Shown here: positions 36,759 to 36,807 of the stretch, piece after piece | How the letters are laid out: each line of letters begins with the position of its first letter | Numbering within the stretch: position 1 is the first letter of the stretch | Assembly: GCA_963704365.1 (NCBI GenBank) | Contig: OY969899.1 | Coordinates: forward strand, 1,009,806-1,073,805 | Reading direction: 5' to 3' | DNA from: Parachlamydiales bacterium | GTDB taxonomy: Bacteria > Chlamydiota > Chlamydiia > Chlamydiales > JAJFMK01 | DNA: 64,000 nt | Made by a program: the position numbers and the translations under genes | The notes under the pieces: generated by a model | Seen by the model: only the letters and a program-made list of their open reading frames with translations | Told to the model about the DNA's origin: nothing | Databases searched by the model: none

Positions 36759-36807
36759 TATACCAGCATCTAGTTGAAATGAGCAATTTCAACTAGATGC
36801 TGGGATA
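36759..36807. repeat. Palindromic repeat family, full hairpin copy
   Basis: TATACCAGCATCTAGTTGAAAT-GAGCA-ATTTCAACTAGATGCTGGGATA, with 22-bp arms and one mismatch. It starts 5 nt after the recD2 stop. Confidence 0.85.

Follow-up and report, generated by a model that had tools for sequence, protein, structure and literature searches.

In the genome of an uncultured chlamydia, the gene recD2 (ORF 34574..36754) is followed almost directly by a 49-nt palindrome, and the question raised by this locus is whether that palindrome is a signal belonging to recD2 or one copy of a mobile repeat. To address it, we analyzed a stretch of 64,000 nucleotides, here referred to as the window, which is part of a 2.6-Mb contig (ENA ERZ25039480) with a GC content of ~44%. 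The RecD2 of this host is ~55% identical to the RecD2 proteins of Parachlamydiaceae, Waddlia and Protochlamydia. Pfam scans, which covered essentially every sizeable ORF of the window, recovered housekeeping genes and chlamydial orphans and, as an earlier note made from the sequence alone had said, no transposase. In the Rfam scan of the window, tRNA-Val (15563-15636) was the only match above the gathering threshold, and no covariance model matched the 49-nt element.

The earlier note had described two complete palindromes, a decayed copy and a half-site, all of them intergenic, and these were confirmed by a mismatch search with shuffled controls. The 22-mer arm TATACCAGCATCTAGTTGAAAT had six matches in the window at up to three mismatches, compared to 0.00 expected from 100 dinucleotide shuffles. 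These were located at 34185 (plus strand, one mismatch), at 34525 (plus, one mismatch), at 36759 (plus, none) facing 36786-36807 (minus, one mismatch), and at 57685 (plus, none) facing 57712-57733 (minus, none). When the search was loosened to seven mismatches, additional matches appeared only at the shuffle level, so copies of the 22-mer are bimodal, being either within one mismatch or absent. The copies in the window are:

36759..36807, no strand assigned: complete copy of 49 nt, with a 45-nt core (TACCAG...CTGGGA), a flanking TA on either side and the centre GAGCA
57685..57733, no strand assigned: complete perfect copy of 49 nt, with 22-bp arms and the 5-nt centre GCGCA
34185..34220, plus strand: partial copy with the left arm (one mismatch), the centre TGCGCA and ~8 nt from the start of the right arm, the remainder being lost
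34525..34548, plus strand: solo terminal arm with one mismatch, 28 nt upstream of the recD2 ATG

The hairpin at 57685 has a 5-nt loop and 22-bp arms without any mismatch, and the one at 36759 carries a single arm mismatch (A/C at position 4), both as originally described. Also in agreement with that description, the 36759 copy begins at the fifth base past the recD2 stop, with 4 nt between them; it lies between convergent genes and was found in all four contigs bearing this RecD2. Two minus-strand genes flank the 57685 copy, which is 24 nt downstream of the one (a 396-aa orphan gene) and 128 nt upstream of the other (an 85-aa ORF). A third full copy is located ~2.5 kb past the right end of the window in the same 2.6-Mb genome (L069 14001-14049). 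It has the same sequence as the 57685 copy but is inverted relative to it, and both orientations of the element therefore exist. In total, three full and two truncated copies occur within ~81 kb of host genome (the window with ~8 kb on its left and 9.5 kb on its right). The core of the 49-nt element is 45 nt long, TACCAGCATCTAGTTGAAAT-N5-ATTTCAACTAGATGCTGGTA, and consists of paired 20-nt terminal inverted repeats (TIRs) placed back to back. Its arms are perfect and AT-rich (~36% GC), a 5-6-nt centre of GCGCA type is common to three copies in the host genome, and no ORF is present within the 45-49 nt.

To place the element outside this host, the arm pattern was scanned in GTDB species representatives and JGI metagenomes. 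The arm was found in two other Chlamydiae MAGs and in one metagenome contig, while the few further matches differed at wildcard positions and are attributed to chance. The same 22-24-nt termini were observed to bound elements with different interiors:

L007/L017: 73-nt element with perfect 35-bp arms
L013: 167-nt element with imperfect arms of ~80 nt
L008: composite of ~454 nt, with a diverged left arm and inner sequence in common with L013
L005: solo end

Outside the host lineage the copy number looks low, with one or two exact arms per MAG. Next to the copies in L005, L007/L017, L008 and L013, the ORFs belong to housekeeping or orphan genes and differ between genomes, so the element has no fixed association with recD2. 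Termini that are conserved up to a sharp outer boundary at TATA, combined with interiors that vary, represent the anatomy of terminal inverted repeats; neither an operator nor abutted IS ends are built in this way. The 49-nt repeats form a new family within a well-known class of selfish repeats rather than a gene-specific regulatory site.

TA flanks every copy in every genome examined. What an insertion adds to its target was assessed at two empty sites, both of which are paralogous and not orthologous:

59142..59183, plus strand: paralogous empty site of 42 nt, matching the flanks of the 57685 copy minus the 45-nt core and one TA
15366..15537, no strand assigned: uninterrupted copy of the family-B repeat, the empty-site paralogue for the L069 copy

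The first site is identical to the joined 57685 flanks at 38 of 42 positions without a gap (alignment score 64, compared to a shuffle maximum of 34). For the second, the full copy in L069 sits in the loop of a 220-nt family-B palindrome (L069 13909-14128). Excision of 47 nt from this host repeat gave the best alignment to 15366-15537, which was also gapless (score 282), whereas alternative excisions of 43, 45 and 49 nt scored 274-276; through the junction, the alignment after the 47-nt excision reads TTAAGATATATGGAC against TTAAGGTATATGGAC. By both of these independent comparisons, an insertion lengthens its target by exactly 47 nt, corresponding to the 45-nt core (TACCAG...CTGGTA) and a duplicated TA. 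At orthologous positions, no copy with up to five mismatches was found within 5-22 kb around recD2 in four sister lineages (RecD2 87-90% and 75% identical). In the recD2 loci of these four lineages and the symporter locus of one, the intergenic DNA has diverged beyond alignment, and these orthologous sites give the absence of the element but not the exact junctions. Every contig with identical flanking proteins contains the element or breaks inside it, and no empty allele was recovered among them. A symmetric target with palindromic flanks appeared plausible by eye but was rejected by an in-register test (14 of 70 complementary positions, compared to ~18 expected).

We consider it likely that the repeats are a non-autonomous foldback MITE with TA target-site duplication, mobilized in trans. 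The element would insert at a TA dinucleotide and duplicate it, giving rise to the 49-nt TATA...TATA palindrome. Because the element encodes nothing, we propose that its movement depends on a transposase supplied from elsewhere, which would bind its terminal repeats. The enzyme suggested by the 2-bp TA duplication is a DDE transposase of the IS630/Tc1-mariner type, as proposed for RUP, Correia and ERIC, and it is probably encoded elsewhere in the genome. Given that three copies have the same centre, the 49-nt form seems to have propagated as such rather than to have arisen three times by deletion, and thus seems to be the unit that moved. Among the features by which prokaryotic MITEs are generally recognized, the family has terminal inverted repeats of at least 10-15 bp, a flanking target-site duplication, no internal ORF and multiple dispersed copies, and it has the 2-bp TA duplication characteristic of IS630/Tc1-mariner MITEs. 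A further feature, an autonomous IS with the same TIRs, was not recovered from GTDB representatives, JGI metagenomes, IMG/VR or PLSDB; a parent IS is likewise not known for many accepted MITEs, Correia among them. Prokaryotic MITEs have been reported as 50-800 bp in length (PMC11602168), which places the 45-49-nt element at or just under their lower size bound.

The search for a mobilizing gene covered the window and the neighboring loci, amounting to ~81 kb of the 2.6-Mb host genome. No transposase, including those of the IS630 family (DDE_3 / HTH), and no Y1/RAYT transposase gene was present in this interval. In the GTDB species representatives and JGI metagenomes, no locus showed a pair of arms at a spacing of 1-2 kb with a transposase gene between them, as would be expected for a parent IS. 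A blastn search of PLSDB plasmids gave chance matches only. In IMG/VR there were 39 matches to the 16 specified core bases, but all had at least three mismatches to the 24-nt arm and are likewise attributed to chance. In the literature searched, the 14-mer of the arm does not occur and nothing links IS630 to chlamydiae. Two recent surveys (PMC11602168, PMC10969869) contain no word beginning with "Chlamydi", and MITEs thus do not feature there for Chlamydiae.

Several described repeat families share parts of this anatomy. Correia, ERIC and RUP have TIRs, target-site duplications and 5'-TA-3' termini, and RUP has been linked to IS630-Spn1 and to TA targets (PMC2229807). Similar to the Correia/NEMIS repeats of Neisseria, the chlamydial element is non-coding with long TIRs (~24-26 nt and starting with TATA in Correia) and a TA target duplication; both are mostly intergenic, co-transcribed as long hairpins and without a known cognate transposase. 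However, Correia elements are 100-155 bp long, have a non-palindromic interior with IHF and promoter motifs and occur in hundreds of copies, whereas the chlamydial element is 45-49 nt, consists essentially of two TIRs and a 5-nt spacer, is unrelated in sequence and has Chlamydiae as its host. The TA target site is also shared with RUP of Streptococcus pneumoniae, with other IS630-derived MITEs and with the Stowaway MITEs of plants, whose TIRs are recognized in trans by an IS630/Tc1-mariner transposase, as we infer for the chlamydial element. In contrast to the latter, for which no parent was found, RUP is 107 bp long and has a known parent, IS630-Spn1, with matching TIRs. With ERIC/IRU and YPAL of enterobacteria, which affect the stability of flanking mRNA, the element has in common that it is palindromic throughout, forms one long RNA hairpin and has TA at its termini. 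ERIC, however, is 127 bp long with short (7-bp) TIRs and an imperfect stem, while the chlamydial arms are perfect and the element is ~2.5 times shorter.

As RNA, the hairpins are predicted to be very stable, with z-scores of -5 to -14 for the stem; whole segments have minimum free energies of -35 to -40 kcal/mol, with z-scores of -5 to -9. In the minimum-free-energy fold of the 36759 copy the hairpin spans 18 bp (z-score about -5.5). An inserted element would therefore put a very stable 22-bp hairpin into read-through transcripts, such as the recD2 3' UTR or the intergenic RNA between the 396-aa and the 85-aa genes, and this hairpin could, as in Correia and ERIC elements, change mRNA stability or be a target of RNase III as a by-product of the insertion. 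A role as a terminator, which had been suggested earlier, was not supported by the sequence: the stem has ~36% GC, no U-tract follows the hairpin on either strand (no T-run within 10 nt) and the terminator scan made no call. An internal promoter within the element was also considered and was rejected, as none had acceptable spacing. Separately, an outward promoter match, based on consensus only, was noted at 34552..34523 on the minus strand (TTTACA-18-TATAAT with TG, 11/12); its -10 box is formed by the terminal TATA of the solo arm and flanking AT, and it points to a 988-aa orphan gene.

The small size of the element also invites comparison with REP and REPIN sequences, which fall into the same size class (hairpins of 20-50 nt) and are likewise extragenic. 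An HUH/Y1 transposase (RAYT or the TnpA of IS200/IS605) could have moved a REP-like hairpin in single-stranded form, TA then being a cleavage-site motif rather than a target-site duplication. The whole element is one 49-nt hairpin of REP-like size, too short for classical paired-end DDE chemistry. The position of the L069 copy in the loop of another palindrome and the centre-in-centre nesting of related elements might reflect a preference for hairpin targets, and an addition of 47 nt bordered by TA at either end would also be expected if insertion took place 3' of a TA and the end of the element carried TA. REPs, however, have a GTAG/CGTC head, which defines the large REP superfamilies (PMC3733652), together with imperfect GC-rich stems, frequent inverted doublets and a RAYT gene, and none of these was seen here. 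Neither GTAG nor CGTC stands at the foot of the hairpin, the stems are perfect and AT-rich, and the window holds no Y1 transposase. In addition, the arms of the 73-167-nt members are long TIRs, and the two-fold symmetric, TA-flanked ends fit an element with TIRs and a target-site duplication, so that we see only a small chance of an HUH/Y1 mechanism. The REP/MITE-like reading in the earlier note is thus retained as far as a dispersed, MITE-like palindrome is concerned, for which there is now insertion evidence, but not as a REP or as a target of RAYT or IS200 enzymes, given the missing GTAG/CGTC head, the 49-, 73- and 167-nt variants and the TA duplication.

It is less probable still that selection maintains the hairpin as a functional RNA or DNA signal (for example a bidirectional terminator, a stabilizer of mRNA 3' ends or an RNase III site) and that it is not a selfish sequence. 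In favor of such a role, the full copies are found either immediately 3' of genes or between convergent ones, the hairpin has a very high stability, and Correia and ERIC elements do affect mRNA processing. These observations have to be set against the lack of a U-tract and of a terminator call, the absence of the element at the same sites in sister species, the occurrence of truncated copies and solo arms, and the insertion signatures, including one copy within another repeat. An operator or binding site for a chlamydial DNA-binding protein regulating recD2 and other genes would account for the palindrome, for the half-site just upstream of the recD2 start and for a sequence that is identical across genomes, but appears very unlikely. 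Arms of 22-35 bp far exceed operators, a point that the earlier note had made for the 22-bp arms; moreover, most copies are at gene 3' ends, adjoining genes elsewhere are unrelated, the sequence is not conserved at orthologous recD2 loci, and TA is duplicated on insertion. Integron attC sites and CRISPR, along with an operator, were rejected on anatomy (perfect arms without extrahelical bases, no array, unrelated adjoining genes). Local duplication or a chance palindrome might be suspected from the clustering of four of the copies within 2.6 kb around recD2, yet no matches were expected by chance, other copies lie 21 kb and 30 kb away and at least three contigs of other organisms carry the sequence, which leaves this explanation with almost no likelihood. 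The earlier note had taken a lack of copies elsewhere in the genome as the mark of a local duplication; copies were found in L069 and in other chlamydial genomes, in line with a family.

For the TA-duplicating foldback MITE that we favor, the size of the element does affect how movement may be envisaged. A length of 45 nt does not allow two DNA-bound transposase subunits to bring the ends together by bending the duplex, which makes the classical cut-and-paste geometry questionable. As two 20-nt ends placed 5 nt apart cannot be paired in this way, the element might move via a cruciform or a single-strand hairpin. We therefore mention, as a speculative and rather improbable extension, that the perfect 45-nt palindrome may be actively mobile in its own right, as approximately the smallest transposable DNA described in bacteria, and may move via an extruded cruciform or single-strand hairpin. 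In such a structure-dependent route, each folded strand would mimic one duplex TIR. If true, this route could explain both the perfect arms and the nesting (family A in the loop of B, and the E core at the centres of A and F), and its geometry of transposition would be one that has not been described for TA-duplicating elements. Apart from its minimal size and perfect symmetry, the element has no unusual features and is a familiar selfish repeat, not a new regulatory system; the same two features make it a convenient minimal substrate for studying the recognition of TA-targeting elements.

The 49-nt family is accompanied by at least three others in the window, indicating that environmental chlamydiae carry active small foldback repeats. 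Family B is a dispersed palindromic repeat of ~170-220 nt with termini TGAGCCATTCCCGCTGTG and arms of ~75 nt; copies were identified at 15366-15537 in the window (beside the tRNA-Val gene at 15563-15636), at L069 13909-14128 and at L070 2069-2086. Family C is a hairpin repeat with 29-bp arms CTCTCTGTGCTCTCTGTGAGCTCTGTGGT around an A-rich loop, present in the host genome at window positions 407-483 and at L069 11603-11675 and 18651-18723. By eye, the composite element of another Chlamydiae MAG contains a similar CTCTGTG-rich hairpin nested within it (L008 ~3330-3400). The fourth repeat, at 283-635 in the window, has inverted ends ...CCTGCCCATCCCATACGCATCAACCTAAGCC... / ...CTTAAGTTGATGCGTATGCCTGCCTATCCTG around a family-C hairpin; a second copy begins at the very end of the window (63945-64000), and a similar motif, GGCAGGATAGGCAGG, occurs downstream of recD2 in the sister locus L020. 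An inner palindromic module, GCGCGAAAGCTCCCGCGGTT...GATCGTAAG..., was observed at L013 895-1080 and 1495-1597 and at L008 3278-3330, centred in elements whose termini differ (two of the TATACCAG family, one of a CTAGTACACTGTCTCG family). The chlamydial foldback elements are accordingly either nested centre-in-centre or modular. In a sister lineage with 90% RecD2 identity, an unrelated long palindrome of ~250 nt (GCGAAGCGTTTGGAGTGCTAAACGG..., L023 2740-3000) lies downstream of recD2, so the same intergenic slot has been colonized by different foldback elements across lineages.

Such repeats have consequences for genome structure and for its reconstruction. They enlarge intergenic regions: the region upstream of recD2 (33948-34573) measures 626 nt, compared to 67-91 nt in the four sister lineages without the element (~70-90 nt). 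Two truncated copies and other hairpins, for example one with 14-bp arms at 34067-34109, are found there, and the region therefore looks like a graveyard of small insertions. Foldback repeats also break short-read assemblies. Short-read (Logan) contigs from four samples (L065-L068, at position 1 of each) end at the centre of the 57685 palindrome (window position 57709), while two long contigs hold this copy intact. The four contigs are independent; elements of this kind therefore fragment k-mer assemblies and will be under-counted in MAGs. They can furthermore provide stop codons and strong RNA hairpins beside genes, and serve as strain and lineage markers.

Two additional observations concern genes next to these repeats. 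The 42-nt sequences within 57657-57745 and at 59142-59183 are direct repeats that bracket the 396-aa orphan gene (57758-58948, minus strand), one of them ending at the hemL start codon; segmental duplication and gene insertion are candidate origins. In L069 12663-14015 (approximately window coordinates 65150-66502, outside the window), the C-terminus of a dicarboxylate symporter is frameshifted and 45 aa longer than in its orthologues of 416-420 aa, probably because of a long-read indel error or a recent frameshift. The false C-terminal extension of the symporter enters the 49-nt element, which provides its TAG stop.
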